From the NCBI GenBank assembly GCA_963664875.1, contig OY761611.1:3328001-3392000 (forward strand): a stretch of DNA of 64,000 bases. The letters are read 5' to 3'. The position numbers and the translations under genes are program-made. Positions within the stretch are counted from its first letter, which is position 1. The number at the start of each line of letters is the position of its first letter. Of the stretch, positions 57,341 through 64,000 are shown in pieces. The notes under the pieces were generated by a model, which saw nothing but the letters and a program-made list of their open reading frames with translations, was not told the DNA's origin and ran no database searches. Origin of the DNA: Candidatus Kapaibacterium sp. GTDB taxonomy: Bacteria; Bacteroidota; Ignavibacteria; Kapaibacteriales; UBA2268.

Positions 57341-58492
57341 TTATTCTCCACTCTCTTCGAAATAATCTATTTCAGTAAGGAAGCGAAGGTAATTTCCTTT
57401 ATTGATAATAGCTACTTTTGCATCCGGGTAAGCGTCTATAAATGCAGACGTAACTCTGCCTTGATTTTCTCTATATTTGAACTCAAATGCATAAAGCATT
57501 CCATCACGTTCTTCAATATAATCTACCTCGCTGCCGCTTTTAGTTCTCCAAAAATAAGCAGAATAGTGGATGTTTGAGTTGTTGAGTAGTTTCATCCTTT
57601 CGACAATGAGATAGTTTTCCCACAAAGCACCCCGGTCATTTCTCATAGGTATAATTTTGAAATCATTGATAATTGCATTTCGTATTCCATTGTCGTAGAA
57701 ATATATTTTATTGCTTTTCCTAAGTTCACTTCGAGCATTGTTAGAGTATGAAGGCAACTCAAAAATCACGAATGCCTGCCGTAGCAAATCAATATACCTG
57801 ACAACTGTTTTTTTGTCAATACCTATCAAATTTGCAAGCTCGTTGTAAGAAACCAAATTGCCAAGCTGAAAAGCAATTGCTTTGACTAATCTATCTAGGA
57901 ATTCAGGTTTACGTAAGTCATTTAGCATAAAAATATCTTTGAAAAGATATGAAGAAGCAATCTCTAAAAGTATTTCAACCTCATCTCCCGGACTAATGAC
58001 TACTTCCGGGTATGAGCCATAGACTAATCTATGCTCTCTTCGCCTTATCTCTTCAAATGTAGAATGGTGCTCAGACAATTCGGCAAATGACATAGGTAGC
58101 ATGAAAAACTCAAACTTCCTGCCGGTCATTGATTCTTTGATTTTGTCATTAATCTCCAAAGAAGAAGATCCTGTAATCAAAATGGCTTTTTCCGGAAAGT
58201 TGTCAACGAGTAATTTAACTGTTACGCCTATGTTTTCAATCCTTTGAGCCTCATCAATAGCAATTAAATCATGATTAGCAATGATAGACTGCAGAGTAGA
58301 AGAGTTTGCATTTTGTAGCATCACCCTTACATCAGGCTCGTCGCAGTTCAAATATAAAGCACTATCGTACCTGTTGCGAGCGATCTGTCTAACTAATGTC
58401 GTTTTTCCGACCTGCCTGGCACCAAGTATAATTATTGCTCTTCTCGAATTCAATTTGCGAACTATGATATTTTCCATATTACGGTTAATCAT
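57341..58492 (-). CDS. AAA_14 ATPase with wHTH and DUF4143 PD-(D/E)xK-like C-terminal domain
   Basis: GARQVGKTT, IDEAQ, TGSSS, GSYPE, KIYFYDNGI, YFWRT..EVDYI..AFEFK. Confidence 0.9.
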   Translation of the reverse strand: MINRNMENIIVRKLNSRRAIIILGARQVGKTTLVRQIARNRYDSALYLNCDEPDVRVMLQNANSSTLQSIIANHDLIAIDEAQRIENIGVTVKLLVDNFPEKAILITGSSSLEINDKIKESMTGRKFEFFMLPMSFAELSEHHSTFEEIRRREHRLVYGSYPEVVISPGDEVEILLEIASSYLFKDIFMLNDLRKPEFLDRLVKAIAFQLGNLVSYNELANLIGIDKKTVVRYIDLLRQAFVIFELPSYSNNARSELRKSNKIYFYDNGIRNAIINDFKIIPMRNDRGALWENYLIVERMKLLNNSNIHYSAYFWRTKSGSEVDYIEERDGMLYAFEFKYRENQGRVTSAFIDAYPDAKVAIINKGNYLRFLTEIDYFEESGE

Positions 58493-58688: not shown

Positions 58689-60500
58689 CTATGGCACTTG
58701 AGGGAGTATAGCTATTGGGAGTTTGATTGTAAAAGTACTACCTTCATTTGGTTTACTTTGTACGGAAATTTCTCCACCACATTTCTCGACAAGCTCTTTG
58801 CAAAGAATTAAACCTAAACCTGAGCTTGACTCGCCATTTGTTCCTAATCTTGAGGTTGATTCTGACACAGAAAATAGTTTACCAATTAGTTCTTCGCTCA
58901 TACCTATACCCGAATCTTTTATGGAAAGAGCAACAAACTTGCCTTGTATAGAAGAAGAGATTTCAATATTGCCTCCATTAGGAGTAAATTTCACTGCATT
59001 CGAAAGGATATTCCTGACAATACCGTTGCACATGTTGTTGTCTGATTCTATAAAAGTATTTTCCGGCACTAAATTAGTTACATTGATACTTTTGGAATCA
59101 ATTTTCGGTTCCAATAGAGCTATGTTATAAGATATCAGTTCACTAAGAATAATTGTATCAGGAGTGAAAGGAACGATGTCTCGTTGCATACGTGACCATT
59201 CTAAAAGATTTTCAAGCAAATCATATACTTTAGTAGCACTTTGTTTGAGAAGACTTGAAATTTCAATAATTTCATCATTTTCAGTAGCAACTGATTCGTT
59301 GACCAAAATTTCGGAGAGCCCTAAAAAGCCTGAGAATGGGCTTCTAAGGTCATGAGCTATAATAGAAAAGAACTTATCCTTTTCTTTTATTGATACTTCC
59401 AATTTGTTATTGGTCTCAATAAGGTGATTGCTTGTTTGAATAAGTTTTTTATTAAGTTCATCTGTTTTTATCTTTGAAGCTATAAACATTCCTATAAAAA
59501 ACAACAAAATAGCAGCTACTATCATGCTTACGATTAGAAATGCGTTGTTGTTATAAATTAATTGACTCAATGTCTCATCTCTCGAATAAGAAATGATGTA
59601 GGCTACAGGTATATTTTCTACATTTTTGATGTTTACAAAAGAAACTATGTAAGTGTCTTCTCCTATTTTGGCATATTTTGAAAAATCTTTGTTTGCATTT
59701 ACTAATGTTCCGATTTCATCTTTGATTTTTTCGTTGATAAGCGATATCACCTCAAGAGATTCTTCTCCTATATGATTGTATTTGTTTTCTAAGAGAAAAT
59801 CTTCTGAAATTGGGCAAGCAATATAATTTGAAAGTTCATCATCAAATACTTTTGATTCGACTATATCTTTTTTGATCATCATACATGAATATTTGATGCC
59901 CAGTTGATTCAGGTTTTTGCCTATACCTTCGAAGGAAAAGCTTGTCTCCACGCTACCTAAATGGTCCCCATTATACAACAATGGGAATACATAGCGAAAG
60001 CCGTTAAAAATTCTGCCCTCTTCAAACCCGATTGTTTCTTTTTTAGTTTCGTTGGTTTTCTTTACTGTATATCTTACGTTTGTCAAATTATCACCAAACT
60101 TTTCTGGTCTGTGGAATCTTAGAAAACTTGTATTATCCGGAAGATGGAAGTGTAGCTGTTTGATGTCAATCTTTCTTAAATTTTGATATGTTCTTTCAAG
60201 TAATAGCAGTAGGCTATCTCTTACATTTTGTTGTACAGTGCTATCTTTCGAAGAAGCTTTTTGATATAATGATAGTATTTTATCATTGTTTACTATTTCT
60301 GTAAAAATTGAATAGCTCACCAGATTAAATGAATTTATCGTGGAAGATATTTTGACTTGCAATTCTTTAGCTTTTGTATCCAAGTAGCCATTATAAGTTC
60401 TTTGATTCGAGTCATTAACAGCTAAATAAAGAAGCAATTCAGTTGCTAAAATTGAAAAAAAGAGTATTATTAGGAATTTTATTTTTTGTGACGAATTCAT
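58689..60500 (-). CDS. Sensor histidine kinase with periplasmic Cache-like domain
   Basis: LHFHLPD..SFLRFH, AHDLRSPF, NAVKFT, SSGLGL; start placed at MNSSQK after GAGAGG. Confidence 0.92.
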   Translation of the reverse strand: MNSSQKIKFLIILFFSILATELLLYLAVNDSNQRTYNGYLDTKAKELQVKISSTINSFNLVSYSIFTEIVNNDKILSLYQKASSKDSTVQQNVRDSLLLLLERTYQNLRKIDIKQLHFHLPDNTSFLRFHRPEKFGDNLTNVRYTVKKTNETKKETIGFEEGRIFNGFRYVFPLLYNGDHLGSVETSFSFEGIGKNLNQLGIKYSCMMIKKDIVESKVFDDELSNYIACPISEDFLLENKYNHIGEESLEVISLINEKIKDEIGTLVNANKDFSKYAKIGEDTYIVSFVNIKNVENIPVAYIISYSRDETLSQLIYNNNAFLIVSMIVAAILLFFIGMFIASKIKTDELNKKLIQTSNHLIETNNKLEVSIKEKDKFFSIIAHDLRSPFSGFLGLSEILVNESVATENDEIIEISSLLKQSATKVYDLLENLLEWSRMQRDIVPFTPDTIILSELISYNIALLEPKIDSKSINVTNLVPENTFIESDNNMCNGIVRNILSNAVKFTPNGGNIEISSSIQGKFVALSIKDSGIGMSEELIGKLFSVSESTSRLGTNGESSSGLGLILCKELVEKCGGEISVQSKPNEGSTFTIKLPIAILPQVP

Positions 60501-60803
60501 ATAACCTCTCGCAAGCATTATGTGTGTCGAGCAGTATTTATATAGTAAAAAGAATAATTGAGAACTTAAAATACATTCAATATAAAGGCATAACATATAG
60601 TGTTTTGTGCAAACACAATTCATTTCACAGGTACAGCATTATGGCAATGTAGTGCTTGAAAATTAAATGCTTGACTAACATTCCAAACTATATCTGTAAT
60701 CAAATATGTTCAGTTTTTTTAACTTCCTAAAATCAAAAATAATTCGAGATTTTAGATACAGCAATATAAAATATATACCGGATGTAATATCTTCTATGGA
60801 AAT

Positions 60804-61988
60804 TTACTCCTTCGCCGGTATTGAGACCTCTACTTCTTCGTTTTTACGAACTATTTTTATCTTGTTGTGATCGAATACCGAGCTATCATTATTGATGATT
60901 TCATTTCCGTCGTAAAGCAAGGCAAATCCTTTATCCAAAGGTCGCATTGGGTGCAAAGAGCTACCGTGTGCTTCTAATCTTGTTAGCTTTTCTTTTAGAC
61001 TGCTGATGTGCGAGCTTATTTTGCGATTCATTCGCATTTCATAACTATCAAGACTTTGTTGATATATTTTGAGACGGTCGAGCATTCTGTTTGTAAAACG
61101 GGTGCCTGTAAGATCTTCAATTTGTTCGCTGAAAGTATTGATTTTTCTTCTGATTGAACGTTCTGATAACTCCTCTGCTTTATCAAGGAAACTGAATAAC
61201 TTATCTATTGTAATTGGAGTAGCCATCTCTGCAGCGGCAGTTGGGGTAGCAGCTCTGTGATCTGCCACAAAATCTGAAATTGTAAAGTCAGTTTCGTGAC
61301 CGACTCCGCTGATAATTGGCTTTTTAGAATTGTAAATTGCGTTGGCTACAATTTCTGTGTTGTAGCACCACAAATCTTCGAGCGAGCCGCCTCCGCGACC
61401 TATAATCAATACATCAGCGTCAGAGGCATTAAGTTCTTCTATTGCTTTTGCTATATCTTCTGCAGCACCATCACCCTGCACAAGGGTCGGTCTAAAAATA
61501 ATCTCTGCTGCAGGAAATCTTCTCTGAGTAGTGGATAGTATATCTCTTACTGCTGCACCTGTTGGCGAAGTAGAAACACCAATTTTCATAGGGAGTGCCG
61601 GTATTGCTTTTTTGTGTGCAATGTCGAAGTATCCTTGCGAACTTAATTTATCTTTCAGTGCTTCAAAAGCTAAGTATAAGTCCCCTTGTCCCAAGGGCTG
61701 CATGGAGCTGACATCCATCTGATAGCTTCCTCTTGGAGGATAAACAGTAACGCTACCGGAAACAATTACTTTCATGCCGTCTTTTGGAATAAAATTTAAG
61801 TTTCTTGATTTCCACATAGTGCAGGCTATTTGGGCGTTGCTGTCCTTTATGGAAAAATACCGGTGACCGGAGCTGTGTTCCTTGAAGTTTGATATTTCGC
61901 CTTCTACTCGGATAGAAGCAAATCCCTTTTCTAAGGTGTATTTTATTTGGTTAGTAAGCTGGCTTACTGTGATTATATTTATTTGCAT
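60804..61988 (-). CDS. xseA: Exodeoxyribonuclease VII large subunit
   Basis: VEGEISNF, SGHRYF, RGGGSLEDLW, GHETDFT, AATPTAAAE. Confidence 0.96.
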   Translation of the reverse strand: MQINIITVSQLTNQIKYTLEKGFASIRVEGEISNFKEHSSGHRYFSIKDSNAQIACTMWKSRNLNFIPKDGMKVIVSGSVTVYPPRGSYQMDVSSMQPLGQGDLYLAFEALKDKLSSQGYFDIAHKKAIPALPMKIGVSTSPTGAAVRDILSTTQRRFPAAEIIFRPTLVQGDGAAEDIAKAIEELNASDADVLIIGRGGGSLEDLWCYNTEIVANAIYNSKKPIISGVGHETDFTISDFVADHRAATPTAAAEMATPITIDKLFSFLDKAEELSERSIRRKINTFSEQIEDLTGTRFTNRMLDRLKIYQQSLDSYEMRMNRKISSHISSLKEKLTRLEAHGSSLHPMRPLDKGFALLYDGNEIINNDSSVFDHNKIKIVRKNEEVEVSIPAKE

Positions 61989-62227
61989 GATTTTGTCTTG
62001 TAGTTGGGAAATTATGAGGCAGCGTCCTTTACAAGTCTTTTAAAATGGACTTTATAATAGTTTTTAGACGACTTCAAGGCTAAAATAAACAATTTCTGCT
62101 CAAAGGCAAAGTTAGAAAATTTATGCTTAACAAAAATAGTGAGAAGGAGGAAGTGATGAAAAAATCGGTCTAAATAAACCTACCTAGCCCGTAATCTACT
62201 TTACGGACGACGTGGCTGCTCAGGGTT

Positions 62228-62360
62228 GCAGATAACGGACAGTATAAGAATAGTAGCCGACTGCGGGCTTTTTTTTGTCAAGATACACGAAAGCTGAGGC
62301 GGGCTACAACCGTTGAATTAACTACTATCACGGCTATTTGCTTTATACATTATTACCTGC
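62228..62360 (-). mobile_element. attC-like imperfect long hairpin closing the kinase cassette
   Basis: Minus strand GCAGGTAAT..GTATAAAGCAAATAGCCG....CGGCTACTATTCTTATAC..GTTATCTGC, starting ~10 bp after the kinase stop. Confidence 0.6.
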
Positions 62361-62370
62361 TGGGCTTTTT

Positions 62371-63384
62371 TCAATTTAGTGTTGTTTCTTTAATTGTTTT
62401 AAAAAATACTTCATCCACCTTATCATCGGGTAAATTTGAATAACAATACTCTGTTTTTCTAATTCCATTCTTTTTAAAATCAATTACCCAGCCTGTTCTT
62501 TTTCGGAATTTATTAATTGAATAATTATCCTTATTACTTAGACCTTTCCAATTATCATTGTCAACATAGAACCAATCAATGGCGAAGTTGAGTTTTTCAA
62601 TAGATTGTCGAAATTCAACACAGTTCTGAAACCTGTTTATCTTATTTTTATGGATAGACTTATTCAGTACCTTAATTACTTTCTCAGGAATATGCGGAAG
62701 AAATTGCCGAGGAGGAAATAAATCTTTTTTTACAGCCTTTCTCCATTCATCTTTATTCGAAAAAGTAAATGGTAAATTATTCGTGTTATTCAATAAGCGA
62801 TAAAAAGTAATACCCATAGCATAAATATCACTTAATTTATCCATTGGGTTGCCTTCGATAACTTCTAATGGTTGATGAGGCTTGTATCCCATAACATCGC
62901 TCGGTTCTGAATGATAATTTATAGCTAAACCAAAATCAGATAATTTAGCTTCACCATTATCCCCGAACATGATATTTCCAGGTTTTATGTCTCGGTGTAA
63001 AACATTGTTATTATGAGCATATTCAAGTCCTAGTAAGCTTTGTTGAATAATTTTGCATGATTCTTTAGCGGAAATGAACCTTTTTTCAATATGTTTCTGT
63101 ATCGAACCTTTTTCAAGAAATTCCATTACAATTAAAACAACTGGCTCTGTATTGAAAATTATTGCTCTGACATCTTTTACATCAACTATATGTTTGTGTC
63201 TGCACAAATCAAGTGTTCGACCTTCTCTTACTGCATTTACAAATTTATCGGGGTCTGGCACTTTAATTACTTTTACTGCAATTTCTTTTTGAAGAAATGG
63301 GTCAAAGCATAAATAAACATGTCCAAAGAAACCATTTCCTAAATGGCGAATAATTTGGAATTTATCGAGTTTAGTCCCTTTCAT
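62371..63384 (-). CDS. Soluble Hanks-type Ser/Thr protein kinase
   Basis: LGNGFFG, IAVK, HRDIKPGN, DFG, PLE (APE variant), DIYAMG; no TM; ~70-aa C-terminal extension. Confidence 0.93.
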   Translation of the reverse strand: MKGTKLDKFQIIRHLGNGFFGHVYLCFDPFLQKEIAVKVIKVPDPDKFVNAVREGRTLDLCRHKHIVDVKDVRAIIFNTEPVVLIVMEFLEKGSIQKHIEKRFISAKESCKIIQQSLLGLEYAHNNNVLHRDIKPGNIMFGDNGEAKLSDFGLAINYHSEPSDVMGYKPHQPLEVIEGNPMDKLSDIYAMGITFYRLLNNTNNLPFTFSNKDEWRKAVKKDLFPPRQFLPHIPEKVIKVLNKSIHKNKINRFQNCVEFRQSIEKLNFAIDWFYVDNDNWKGLSNKDNYSINKFRKRTGWVIDFKKNGIRKTEYCYSNLPDDKVDEVFFKTIKETTLN

Positions 63385-63839
63385 TACATTAAATTAAACC
63401 ATGCTACCAAAACAGCTTCTTTTGTCGGCTTATCCCAATAAGGAGGATGAGTGCCAATTATTCCATCAATATATGCGTAAACATCAGTCTTCTTAGTTTG
63501 TCCGAATTTGGTAGCATTTATCGCTTGTGGAGAATATGAGTTTATTTGAATATTTCTCTTTTTAGCAAGTAAATTTAAAATCGCCTGTGGATAACACGAA
63601 TTCCTAACTTGGTCAAGTGTTGATATTGTCAATGAAATTTTGTGACTTAACAAATCTGGACTATGCTTATCAATAATCAAGGAAAGTTGAGTTTCAAACC
63701 ATTCCATTAAATCAGCGGTATCCATGTTATTTGGATAAACGATTTTGTTTTTTTCGATAATGGTCGGTGGTTTGGTTTGGTTTCCTAAAACACAGTATCG
63801 AAAATCATTCTTTGTAAAATTAAATCCTATTGCTATCAT
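63384..63839 (-). CDS. Small RuvC/RNase H-fold-like protein, translationally coupled to the kinase
   Basis: Pattern MIAIGFN..YCVL, IIDKHSPDLL, INSYSP, KEAVLVA resembles RuvC topology; TAATG overlap with the kinase. Confidence 0.55.
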   Translation of the reverse strand: MIAIGFNFTKNDFRYCVLGNQTKPPTIIEKNKIVYPNNMDTADLMEWFETQLSLIIDKHSPDLLSHKISLTISTLDQVRNSCYPQAILNLLAKKRNIQINSYSPQAINATKFGQTKKTDVYAYIDGIIGTHPPYWDKPTKEAVLVAWFNLM

Positions 63840-64000
63840 AGTTTCTCTGTCTTTTTAGCCTGACCGCAAACTCATTTATCTACATACTCTCAATAAATGA
63901 TAAGCTAAAATAAGAAATTCTTGAAATAAAAAAAAATAATCATTGGATACATTCTTATAAACAACAATAAAATAGAGAATTGTGTATGAACCACGAACAA

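Follow-up and report, generated by a model that had tools for sequence, protein, structure and literature searches.

A RuvC-fold protein and a Hanks-type kinase paired in an integron-type cassette: a candidate phage-defence or toxin-antitoxin module

Close to xseA, at the end of the window (the whole stretch of 64,000 nucleotides that was analysed), lie two AT-rich genes whose initial annotation raised the question of whether a RuvC-like protein and a soluble Ser/Thr kinase travel together as a mobile cassette and, if so, what such a pair might do for its host. Both open reading frames were recovered on the minus strand (Table 1), joined as had been described: the stop codon of the small gene and the start codon of the kinase gene have one base in common, so that the minus strand reads TAATG. 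The gene xseA follows downstream of the pair at 61988..60804 (Pfam Exonuc_VII_L, E = 8.3e-84). The G+C content of the pair, 31.5%, is below that of xseA (40.5%) and that of the genome (36.2%). From the yitT stop to the xseA start, two congeners (G002 and G003) have about 50 nt and the source genome (G000) has 2633 nt; the cassette of the source genome sits inside a 2.6-kb insertion in the yitT/xseA interval, where it is flanked by dispersed repeats and an RHS gene fragment. An Rfam search of positions 61900-64000 returned zero matches at E values up to 1.

Table 1. Features of the cassette and its surroundings in the window
Feature	Coordinates	Strand	Remarks
attC-type recombination site	62228..62361	-	R'' GCAGGTAAT ... 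R' GTTATCTGC; probably decayed
Hanks-type Ser/Thr kinase gene	62371..63384	-	337 aa, soluble, small C-terminal beta-rich domain
RuvC-fold small-protein gene	63384..63839	-	151 aa; Asn7 and Lys67 at catalytic positions
Short leader, boundary box to first ATG	63840..63861	-	common to near-identical metagenome and metatranscriptome contigs
5' boundary box, R'-type GTT box GTTTGCGGTC	63862..63871	-	related boxes elsewhere; homology break
Block between xseA and yitT	61989..64000		extra relative to two congeners; runs 621 nt beyond the window end

A two-gene module implies co-occurrence across genomes, and this is what was found. In 42 of 43 genome loci (among them one cut by a contig end), the small gene is immediately followed by the kinase gene, with an intergenic gap of at most 30 nt in 41 of 42 loci and a median gap of -1. 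The identities of the two proteins to the copies in the window correlate closely (Spearman 0.95, n = 42 related loci), and no other gene family is common to more than 8 of the 43 loci. Both genes are inherited as one unit through many phyla: the loci belong to Bacteroidota, Gamma- and Betaproteobacteria, Desulfobacterota, Planctomycetota, Nitrospirota, Spirochaetota, and others, more than 10 phyla altogether. Among 40 relatives of the source genome, none (0/40) carries the small protein. Clustering yielded 206 representatives of the partner among 1.84 billion proteins, each of about 150 aa; the longest of the 150 best representatives has 248 aa, and a search of proteins of 266-2000 aa gave no fused form, a result of little weight. 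No relative of the small protein turned up in plasmids, phage genomes, or IMG/VR viral contigs.

The proposed vehicle of this linkage was an integron-type cassette ending in an attC-like hairpin of about 133 bp. The 133-nt element in question ends in GCAGGTAAT (62360..62352) and GTTATCTGC (62236..62228). Its folding energy is unexceptional compared to shuffles (z = +0.88 for DNA and -1.18 for RNA). Sites of the attC type are defined by architecture, not by folding energy; the energy, no better than that of shuffles, was dropped as a test of the hairpin, and comparative tests were decisive. For these, nine homologous sites of about 137 nt were aligned, namely, that of the window and 8 post-kinase sites of other loci. 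The alignment contained 21 consensus pairs, 16 of them with compensatory change. Paired cells amounted to 85.7%, compared to 60.3% in shuffled alignments (0 of 500 reached the observed value) and 32-42% in slid alignments, and the covariation score was 0.623 compared to a maximum of 0.168 when slid. The hairpin is thus real by covariation among the nine sites, whereas by energy it does not stand out. As judged by this comparison of sites, the paired outer (R''/R') and inner (L''/L') boxes of an attC are present.

The copy in the window deviates from its relatives at the boxes themselves. Its R'' reads AAT and its R' reads GTT; column 11 is C in 8 of the 9 aligned sites, with the window as the exception, and a metagenome copy of 98.5% identity reads ...GGCAAC in R''. 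The conserved AAC of R'' is thus missing from the window copy, and the GTT of R' is present. Ahead of the small gene, the box GTTTGCGGTCAGGCT had been placed some 30 bp before the first ATG. It is found at 63871..63857, and the distance holds for its G (32 nt from the ATG) and not for its near end (17 nt). Related GTT boxes occur 23-65 nt ahead of the ATG at many loci. When 42 units (41 loci and the window) were tested, the 5' GTT box and the post-kinase box were complementary at 8/8 positions in 12 units, with 8 distinct motifs and a shuffled mean of 0.07, and complementarity reached 9/9 in the 98.5%-identical metagenome copies. The 5' box of the window matches R'' at 7 of 14 positions by eye, and the best 11-mer scores 6. 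The box complementarity of a circularisable unit is therefore true of the family and has been lost in the window copy. Homology to the 98.5%-identical metagenome copies ends exactly at both boxes; these copies diverge just inside the 5' box, where the match ends at 63861 and another GTT box occupies the same spot.

Sibling hairpins were sought with a model built from the attC sites, which placed 42 of 44 hits on the strand of the pair (3 to 8 hits per locus at 8 loci), and same-strand attC arrays surround the pair at these 8 loci. Integron-type recombinases adjoin some loci; that of locus L008 scored 229.3 bits (cut-off, 220) with NF040815 (site-specific tyrosine recombinase/integron integrase). 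In the 3.83 Mb of the source genome, the attC search gave one good match and one at an E value of about 1, and no integron integrase exceeded the cut-off (best score, 84.8 bits versus 265). A same-strand array accompanied by an integrase is thus a feature of some other loci and not of the source genome. Taken together, the attC covariation, the same-strand arrays, the box complementarity, and the homology breaks at the boxes bear out the cassette: the pair is a genuine attC-bounded two-gene integron-type cassette and has spread by attC recombination. The source genome has a solitary copy, which is probably no longer mobile. A single contig from an RNA library represents another organism's copy of the cassette; DNA carry-over is possible.

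The downstream gene product is, by its sequence motifs, a catalytically intact soluble Hanks-type Ser/Thr kinase. Pfam Pkinase (PF00069) matched with 151.6 bits (E = 3.6e-44; cut-off, 31.7), and the kinase domain (residues 9-253) was the only Pfam domain matched. All catalytic motifs noted at the outset were located, i.e., GxGxxG (16-21), K38, E54, HRD (130-132), N137, DFG (150-152), PLE in place of APE (172-174), D186, and R251, and they are invariant or near-invariant among 29 relatives. The reported lack of a transmembrane segment and of PASTA domains likewise agrees with a top 19-residue Kyte-Doolittle mean of 1.57, at which no membrane segment is called, and with the Pfam result. In the AF2 model of the kinase (pLDDT 90.4), the small C-terminal domain that had been noticed is predicted at about residues 270-335 as five strands and a helix (pLDDT 96-98). 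This domain had no usable match in the ESM Atlas. A fold search with the whole kinase was dominated by kinase domains; WNK3 kinase-CCT1, matched over 304 residues with an rmsd of 5.1, is a lead. The nearest solved sequence is PknB (E = 2.4e-25).

For the small protein, the RuvC topology had been recognized by eye, with Asn and Lys at sites where RuvC has acidic catalytic residues. The AF2 model (pLDDT 93.1) confidently predicts a RuvC (RNase H-like) fold for the 151 residues. RuvC accounted for all of the top 12 Foldseek matches (best E = 5.5e-11, TM 0.82); VIA-align gave Z scores of 17.2 (rmsd 3.0, 146 residues aligned) and 16.4 against RuvC, with TEFM as the next-best fold at a Z score of 12.6; and hhalign aligned 134 columns with RuvC (E = 3e-4) at a modest probability of 39.7%. 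The cut-offs of the RuvC sequence families were missed (12 bits versus 22.2 in Pfam and 16.9 versus 163 in NCBIfam), and a PDB sequence search with the profile of the small protein found a chance-level match only. In the ESM Atlas, the protein fell among unnamed clusters, one of which had DUF3010 in 22% of its members; PF11215 was absent from the Pfam matches of the small protein at E values up to 1. DUF3010 is described as an RNase H-like family close to resolvases (PMC3985635).

In 11 true RuvC sequences, the positions of Asn7 and Lys67 are taken by an invariant Asp5 and Glu67, and the profile alignment matches Asp136 and Glu141 with RuvC Asp140 and Asp143, by which Lys137 and Lys140 were ruled out as counterparts of the last two Asp residues. 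Of the four RuvC carboxylates (Asp, Glu, Asp, Asp), the first two are replaced and the last two acidic positions are retained, so that the reading of Asn and Lys at the acidic sites stands, but for only two of the four. Asn7 and Lys67 are invariant among 25 close relatives; among 35 distant relatives, position 7 is variable and position 67 is mainly Lys or Arg. The small protein is a stand-alone RuvC derivative and, with Asn and Lys in place of two metal-binding carboxylates (the first two), most likely a non-cleaving pseudo-nuclease. A separate true RuvC is encoded elsewhere in the source genome. G113 and K117 align with G115 and K119, invariant residues of the Gly/Lys loop of RuvC. We infer possible DNA binding from the fold and two aligned residues only, and the mildly basic pI of 8.8 counts against it.

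Do the two proteins meet? A model of the complex scored an ipSAE of 0.68, compared to 0.00 for the best of 3 controls; the mark for this score, attained by 58 of 80 solved complexes and 2 of 110 mismatched pairs, is approximate here, custom alignments having been used. At least 92% of the contacts agreed between runs, with a partner pLDDT of at least 90. The prediction supports binding of the two proteins to each other. In the model, the small protein uses its helix 1 and the end of its strand 3 to contact the kinase at helices E and I and at the alphaC-beta4 loop. The contacts comprise residues 31-38 and 50-58 of the small protein and residues 64-65, 107-125, and 256-267 of the kinase. The interface includes the invariant T50 and L54 of the small protein, and the kinase residues involved adjoin the invariant H63, L117, L120, and H124. 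The predicted contact surface is on the rear face of the kinase C-lobe and leaves the active site uncovered. This is not what a simple plug-type antitoxin would be expected to look like; with the interface off the active site, neutralization would need to be allosteric.

The company that the pair keeps points toward conflict. Among the 77 neighbouring open reading frames at the 8 array loci are RE_TdeIII, a D12 methyltransferase, AbiH, AbiLi, AbiU, AIPR, an AbiEii-like AAA_21, and PIN. On the other side of the account, many non-defence families (glyoxalase, cNMP-binding, permease) are found in the same arrays, housekeeping genes are the neighbours in the source genome, and what ties the small protein to defence is genomic context alone. 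None of the PADLOC models matched the small protein, whereas the kinase domain by itself resembles the models PD-T4-6 (E = 1.9e-45, residues 6-266 on model positions 8-273 of 292) and mad6 (positions 48-301 of 659 covered; MAD6 in NCBIfam, 128.2 bits versus 460). With such strong PD-T4-6 and mad6 scores, an automatic annotator would probably name the kinase a known defence.

The pair makes a good candidate for a phage-defence or toxin-antitoxin module that is as yet undescribed. The initial interpretation holds in part, as regards the cassette, the co-occurrence, the RuvC fold with its substitutions, the partner free of PADLOC matches, and the predicted binding. We lean, with slightly better than an even chance, toward a conflict module, of either the toxin-antitoxin or the abortive-infection type, in which the kinase would be the effector and the pseudo-nuclease its regulator or trigger. 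Once released or activated, the kinase would phosphorylate numerous cellular or phage proteins and growth would stop; the RuvC-fold subunit would be the regulatory or sensing part. It may retain the binding of RuvC to branched or structured DNA and could thereby link phage replication or recombination intermediates to kinase activity. That the pseudo-nuclease in fact reads DNA shape, such as Holliday junctions or branched phage or plasmid intermediates, and switches on the bound Hanks kinase is a more specific proposal, which we consider rather unlikely.

The same genes could be a pure addiction cassette, in which the small protein neutralizes the kinase as a toxin and the module stabilizes cassette arrays or ensures its own maintenance but plays no part in phage defence. 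As in type II systems, a small gene comes first and shares one base with the larger gene that follows; the predicted complex supports binding; the pair is found in chromosomal attC arrays, of which toxin-antitoxin systems have been reported as regulators (PMC13108822); and one relative of the small gene adjoins an apparent Xre/RES pair (by eye). Against this, the small protein is a fully folded domain (pLDDT 93) in which no HTH or RHH motif and no disordered tail were detected, the predicted contact avoids the kinase active site, and the conserved Asn, Lys, Asp, and Glu residues together with the Gly/Lys loop suggest ligand binding beyond neutralization. We give this explanation a low probability.

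Quite unlikely, in our view, is a targeting or activating subunit that would bring the kinase to branched DNA, making the pair a stress or DNA-transaction regulator that is carried on a cassette incidentally. At stalled forks or recombination intermediates, the kinase would then phosphorylate repair, replication, or invader proteins. The RuvC fold with its loop residues G113 and K117 kept, an interface on the back of the kinase that leaves the catalytic cleft free, and a fully intact kinase are all compatible with such a role. However, occurrence is sporadic and shaped by horizontal transfer (1 of 41 related genomes and the 206 representative clusters mentioned above), unlike that expected of a housekeeping regulator, and the neighbourhood contains neither a conserved third gene nor a substrate gene. 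That the cassette of the source genome is an inert fossil outside any integron, silent or decaying and functionless there, is very unlikely: the missing integrase, the single good attC match, the decayed R'' and 5' boxes, and the flanking repeats and RHS fragment speak for it, but both frames are intact, all invariant residues of both families are present, and the divergence from copies in other organisms is only about 1.5%.

Returning to the conflict module, phage defences based on kinases have been described, but little is understood of how they work or, for the most part, of what sets them off. The pair is a compact, strongly conserved two-protein system whose second subunit is recognizably derived from a junction-binding enzyme, which makes a sensor hypothesis testable. 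It also provides a clean case of a two-gene cassette moved by attC recombination over distant phyla, Bacteroidota included, whose intact and decayed copies can be compared nearly base by base. If the pair is a defence or toxin-antitoxin module, it would add a new protein family to both catalogues. If DNA-shape sensing were true, an undescribed kind of immune or abortive system would emerge, one that reads the shape of DNA, and not its sequence or a phage protein, via protein phosphorylation, and that has travelled through more than 10 phyla in a 1.6-kb integron cassette.

Among known systems, integron cassettes with defence or toxin-antitoxin genes share the attC boundaries, the same-strand arrays, and, at some loci, the integron-type recombinase. 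Such cassettes have been reported as phage-defence stores (10.1101/2024.07.02.601719 and 10.1101/2024.07.02.601686); the main texts of these two preprints make no mention of RuvC or of a cassette-encoded kinase, the word "kinase" being absent from one and occurring once in the other, for the non-cassette T7 gp0.7. The literature searched contained no description of a RuvC-fold/kinase pair, which supplementary cassette lists might contain. HipBA and the HipA-like DS-6 are likewise two-gene kinase modules read as toxin-antitoxin-like abortive-infection defences; in DS-6, a kinase is reported with an unrelated partner of unknown function, and a catalytic mutant loses defence (PMC13092281). HipA-family kinases differ from the Hanks type (Pfam Pkinase), and the partner here has a RuvC fold instead of being HipB or DUF3037/DUF1829. 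With the RuvC resolvase (PF02075), the small protein shares the predicted fold over its whole length, the Gly/Lys loop, and the two C-terminal acidic positions; it differs in the Asn and Lys at the first two carboxylates, in scores far under the cut-offs, and in its kinase partner. TEFM likewise has a resolvase-like fold, reused as a non-catalytic binding module; however, it is eukaryotic, part of a transcription factor, and not known to have a kinase partner, and its likeness to the small protein is seen at the level of the fold. The presumed effector is likewise a soluble eukaryotic-like Ser/Thr kinase in PD-T4-6 of E. coli and Stk2 of staphylococci, the likeness to PD-T4-6 lying at the level of the kinase domain only, where PknB scores similarly. 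Both are single-gene systems, whereas the pair described here combines an upstream RuvC-fold partner, present in 42 of 43 loci, with a C-terminal domain on the kinase and the form of an integron cassette unit.

The two genes share one base, and the minus strand reads TAATG at their junction upstream of xseA, as the initial annotation had described; every motif quoted there was found in place. The G+C content of the pair is 31.5%, versus 36.2% for the genome. Coordinates are collected in the table.

Features of the cassette, its surroundings and related loci (window coordinates unless a handle is given; G000, the window's own genome; L numbers, loci)
Feature	Position	Strand	Remark
AAA_14/DUF4143 ATPase gene	57341-58492		downstream of xseA; unrelated to cassette
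dCache histidine kinase gene	58689-60623		adjoins ATPase gene; unrelated to cassette
xseA	61988..60804		downstream of pair; Exonuc_VII_L, E 8.3e-84
75-nt repeat	62064-62137		block part, between RHS fragment and xseA
RHS fragment	62175-62223		block part; 49 nt, non-coding, directly after attC site
Cassette itself			block part
attC-type site	62228..62361		R'' and R' boxes
attC 3' half	62232-62270
Stretch matched by metagenome contigs	62356-63861
Kinase gene	63384..62371	minus	337-aa ORF
Kinase residues 264-337	62371-62594
Small-protein gene	63839..63384	minus	151-aa ORF
5' GTT box	63862..63871
Dispersed repeats, cassette to yitT	63872-64000		block part, ~780 nt (782 nt, to 64621 in genome; L045); 78 other genome matches
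75-nt repeat copies	G000 3521544-3521618; 3544498-3544572		both 92% identical; first adjoins RHS-type cluster
Weak attC-like site	G000:C1:37741-37863
272-aa ORF	G000:C1:37879-38697		followed by weak attC-like site
Integron-type recombinase	L008:5685-6755	same as cassettes
Split recombinase fragments	L025:3730-4649	divergent	directly beside pair
Kinase-less locus	L039:8001-9579

A word-indexed search returned 136 relatives of the small protein, mostly unnamed (53-99% identity among the 120 listed), and an exhaustive profile search of 1.84 billion proteins gave 206 representative clusters, nearly all of about 150 aa (longest among the 150 listed, 248 aa). Taking one genome per species yielded 43 loci encoding a relative. 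A kinase relative lies directly downstream in 42 of these (cut by the contig end in one), with an intergenic gap of at most 30 nt in 41 of the 42 and a median of -1. When the 707 ORFs of the 43 loci were clustered all against all, no third common gene family emerged, the next most frequent being tyrosine recombinases (8/43). Judged from this co-occurrence, which had been proposed as a check, the two genes are one unit. The pair's hosts span many phyla; no relative of the small protein was found in 40 relatives of the window's genome or in plasmid, phage and viral-contig collections. The only kinase-less locus, L039, carries a small gene that is 37% identical, followed in the kinase's place by two other small genes that by eye resemble an Xre-type antitoxin and a RES-domain toxin.

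The small protein had been assigned a RuvC topology by eye. Its sequence-library scores were weak (Pfam RuvC, E 0.19; NCBIfam RuvC, E 0.0045), and it matched no PADLOC model, a check that had also been suggested. Its predicted structure was confident (pLDDT 93.1, pTM 0.89), and the twelve best Foldseek matches were all RuvC (best 7xhj_A: E 5.5e-11, TM 0.82, rmsd 2.7, 153 columns). An independent structure search likewise returned RuvC (Z 17.2, rmsd 3.0, 146 residues aligned; and Z 16.4), followed by other resolvases and TEFM at Z of about 12.6. Comparison with a profile of 11 true RuvC proteins from the window's genome and its relatives extended over 134 columns (E 3e-4, probability 39.7%). 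It placed Asn7 and Lys67 on the first catalytic Asp and the catalytic Glu, respectively, so that the claimed N and K hold for the first two acidic sites; the last two Asp, in contrast, are matched by Asp136 and Glu141. Gly113 and Lys117 fall on the invariant Gly115 and Lys119 of RuvC. All of 25 close relatives have Asn7 and Lys67; across 35 distant ones, position 7 is variable and seldom acidic, with Lys or Arg predominating at position 67. The fold matches and the residues at these catalytic positions indicate that the small protein is RuvC-derived and make DNA cutting by the usual two-metal mechanism very unlikely. E. coli RuvC with its first Asp changed to Asn is reported to bind junctions without cleaving them. 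A normal RuvC is encoded elsewhere in the window's genome.

Pfam Pkinase covers residues 9-253 of the kinase (151.6 bits), and the closest solved sequence is PknB (E 2.4e-25). The catalytic motifs are kept, as had been noted: aligning 29 relatives showed full or near invariance of the Gly loop, Lys38, Glu54, His-Arg-Asp 130-132, Asn137, Asp-Phe-Gly 150-152, the PLE-motif Glu174, Asp186 and Arg251. The kinase has no apparent membrane segment, in line with the earlier reading. The predicted model (pLDDT 90.4) is uncertain in the activation loop (156-165), and the small C-terminal domain reported before is well defined at about 270-335, with five strands and a helix; Trp271, Trp279 and Gly281 are invariant in the 29 relatives. 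The whole model aligns with the WNK3 kinase plus CCT1 didomain (5o2c) over 304 residues (rmsd 5.1). Residues 264-337 might resemble a peptide-binding CCT/PF2-type domain, which we offer as a lead only.

When both alignments were supplied, complex prediction gave an ipSAE of 0.68, compared to 0.00 for the best of three controls; 58 of 80 solved complexes attain this mark, as do 2 of 110 mismatched pairs, a calibration that is only rough because our own alignments were used. Contact agreement between runs was at least 92%, with a partner pLDDT of at least 90. The prediction thus supports binding of the kinase by the small protein. In the predicted interface, residues 31-38 and 50-58 of the small protein meet kinase residues 64-65, 107-125 and 256-267, a surface on the back of the C-lobe and away from the catalytic cleft. 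In both families, several of these interface residues are invariant or adjoin invariant positions.

The attC-like hairpin of the initial annotation was borne out by covariation and not by folding energy, which did not single out the 133-nt element; Rfam gave no match for it. At many loci, a box ending in AAC directly follows the kinase stop, a box starting with GTT lies 60-140 nt further on, and the small gene is preceded, at 23-65 nt, by the reverse complement of the post-kinase box; the boxes of attC sites are named R'', L'', L' and R'. Of 42 units, 12 have an exact 8-nt complement of the upstream GTT box within 55 nt past the kinase stop, and 8 different motifs are represented (downstream sequence shuffled, 200 trials: mean 0.07, maximum 2; cross-locus pairings: 32/1722). 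Nine sites of about 137 nt, including the window's, align well, and their consensus comprises 21 pairs, 16 with compensatory changes; paired cells amount to 85.7%, versus 60.3% in shuffles (0/500) and 32-42% with partners slid. Searched with a covariance model of the nine, the 43 loci gave 44 matches at E ≤1, of which 42 share the strand of the pair; eight matches are seeds, so the suggested search for sibling hairpins yielded 34 further same-strand sites. Arrays occur in eight loci (L002, L004, L005, L008, L009, L011, L012 and L020), in each of which one site ends 27-55 nt before the small gene. The L008 recombinase scores 229.3 bits (cut-off 220) with the NCBIfam model "site-specific tyrosine recombinase/integron integrase," and the integron-integrase model is the best match of recombinase fragments in L025 and L039. 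The L025 fragments are divergent and adjoin the pair, so the pair may be the first cassette there. Box pattern, covariation and arrays together make up an integron-cassette architecture; such cassettes are known from Bacteroidota and many other phyla (PMC8618304).

Public runs from 14 studies contain all or part of the cassette, and four runs were compared with the surrounding 4 kb. Contigs from two of the metagenomes and from one metatranscriptome match window 62356-63861 with 21-23 differences in 1506 nt and continue into unrelated sequence on both sides, the end points lying directly inside both boxes. These copies carry the upstream box GTTGCCTGC and the post-kinase box GCAGGCAAC, complementary at 9/9 positions. 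The RNA-library contig covers both genes, which by itself is no proof of transcription. In two metagenomes, the attC 3' half recurs on several contigs that are short, of high depth and differently flanked, the pattern expected if those communities hold a repeated attC family.

Two of four congeners have about 50 nt between yitT and xseA (in the other two, the neighbors of yitT differ); in the window's genome, 2633 nt separate them, as a four-part block. The repeats next to yitT form a mosaic with G+C-rich hairpins; one unit, some 260 nt long and represented by five or more near-full copies (blastn), may be a MITE-like element. The RHS fragment derives from an RHS-associated core coding sequence (full copy: TIGR03696, 51.7 bits; cut-off, 32.5). 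Its 14 other copies listed by blastn cluster near 3.21, 3.44-3.455 and 3.52 Mb, in what look like RHS loci with orphan modules. No integron integrase above the cut-off was found in this genome (best 84.8 bits versus 265), and it has one good attC match and one at E ~1. The latter (19.3 bits; 75% identical to the window's site over 97 nt) follows an unrelated ORF and may mark another stray cassette. In the window, R'' has AAT, and the two boxes lack mutual complementarity. We read this cassette as solitary and no longer mobile; both genes are intact.

Neighboring ORFs in the eight array loci number 77 and, besides many of unrelated function, comprise restriction-modification, AbiH, AbiLi, AbiU, AIPR, AbiEii-like and PIN genes. 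Kinase-based defenses exist, and a reading as toxin-antitoxin-like abortive systems has been given to two-gene kinase modules (PMC13092281, PMC9519451). These neighbors and precedents lead us to lean slightly toward a conflict module, in which the kinase would act as effector and the pseudo-RuvC subunit would regulate or trigger it, possibly by binding branched DNA. The rival explanations are that the pair is a pure addiction module, that the small protein is a targeting subunit for a kinase of DNA transactions, or that the copy in the window's genome is an inert fossil. Our literature search, supplements aside, found no description of the pair; in the main texts of the integron-defense and cassette-recovery preprints, RuvC is absent and the single mention of "kinase" refers to a T7 protein. 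We regard the partner family of the kinase as undescribed so far, within a putative kinase-effector conflict module carried by an integron cassette.
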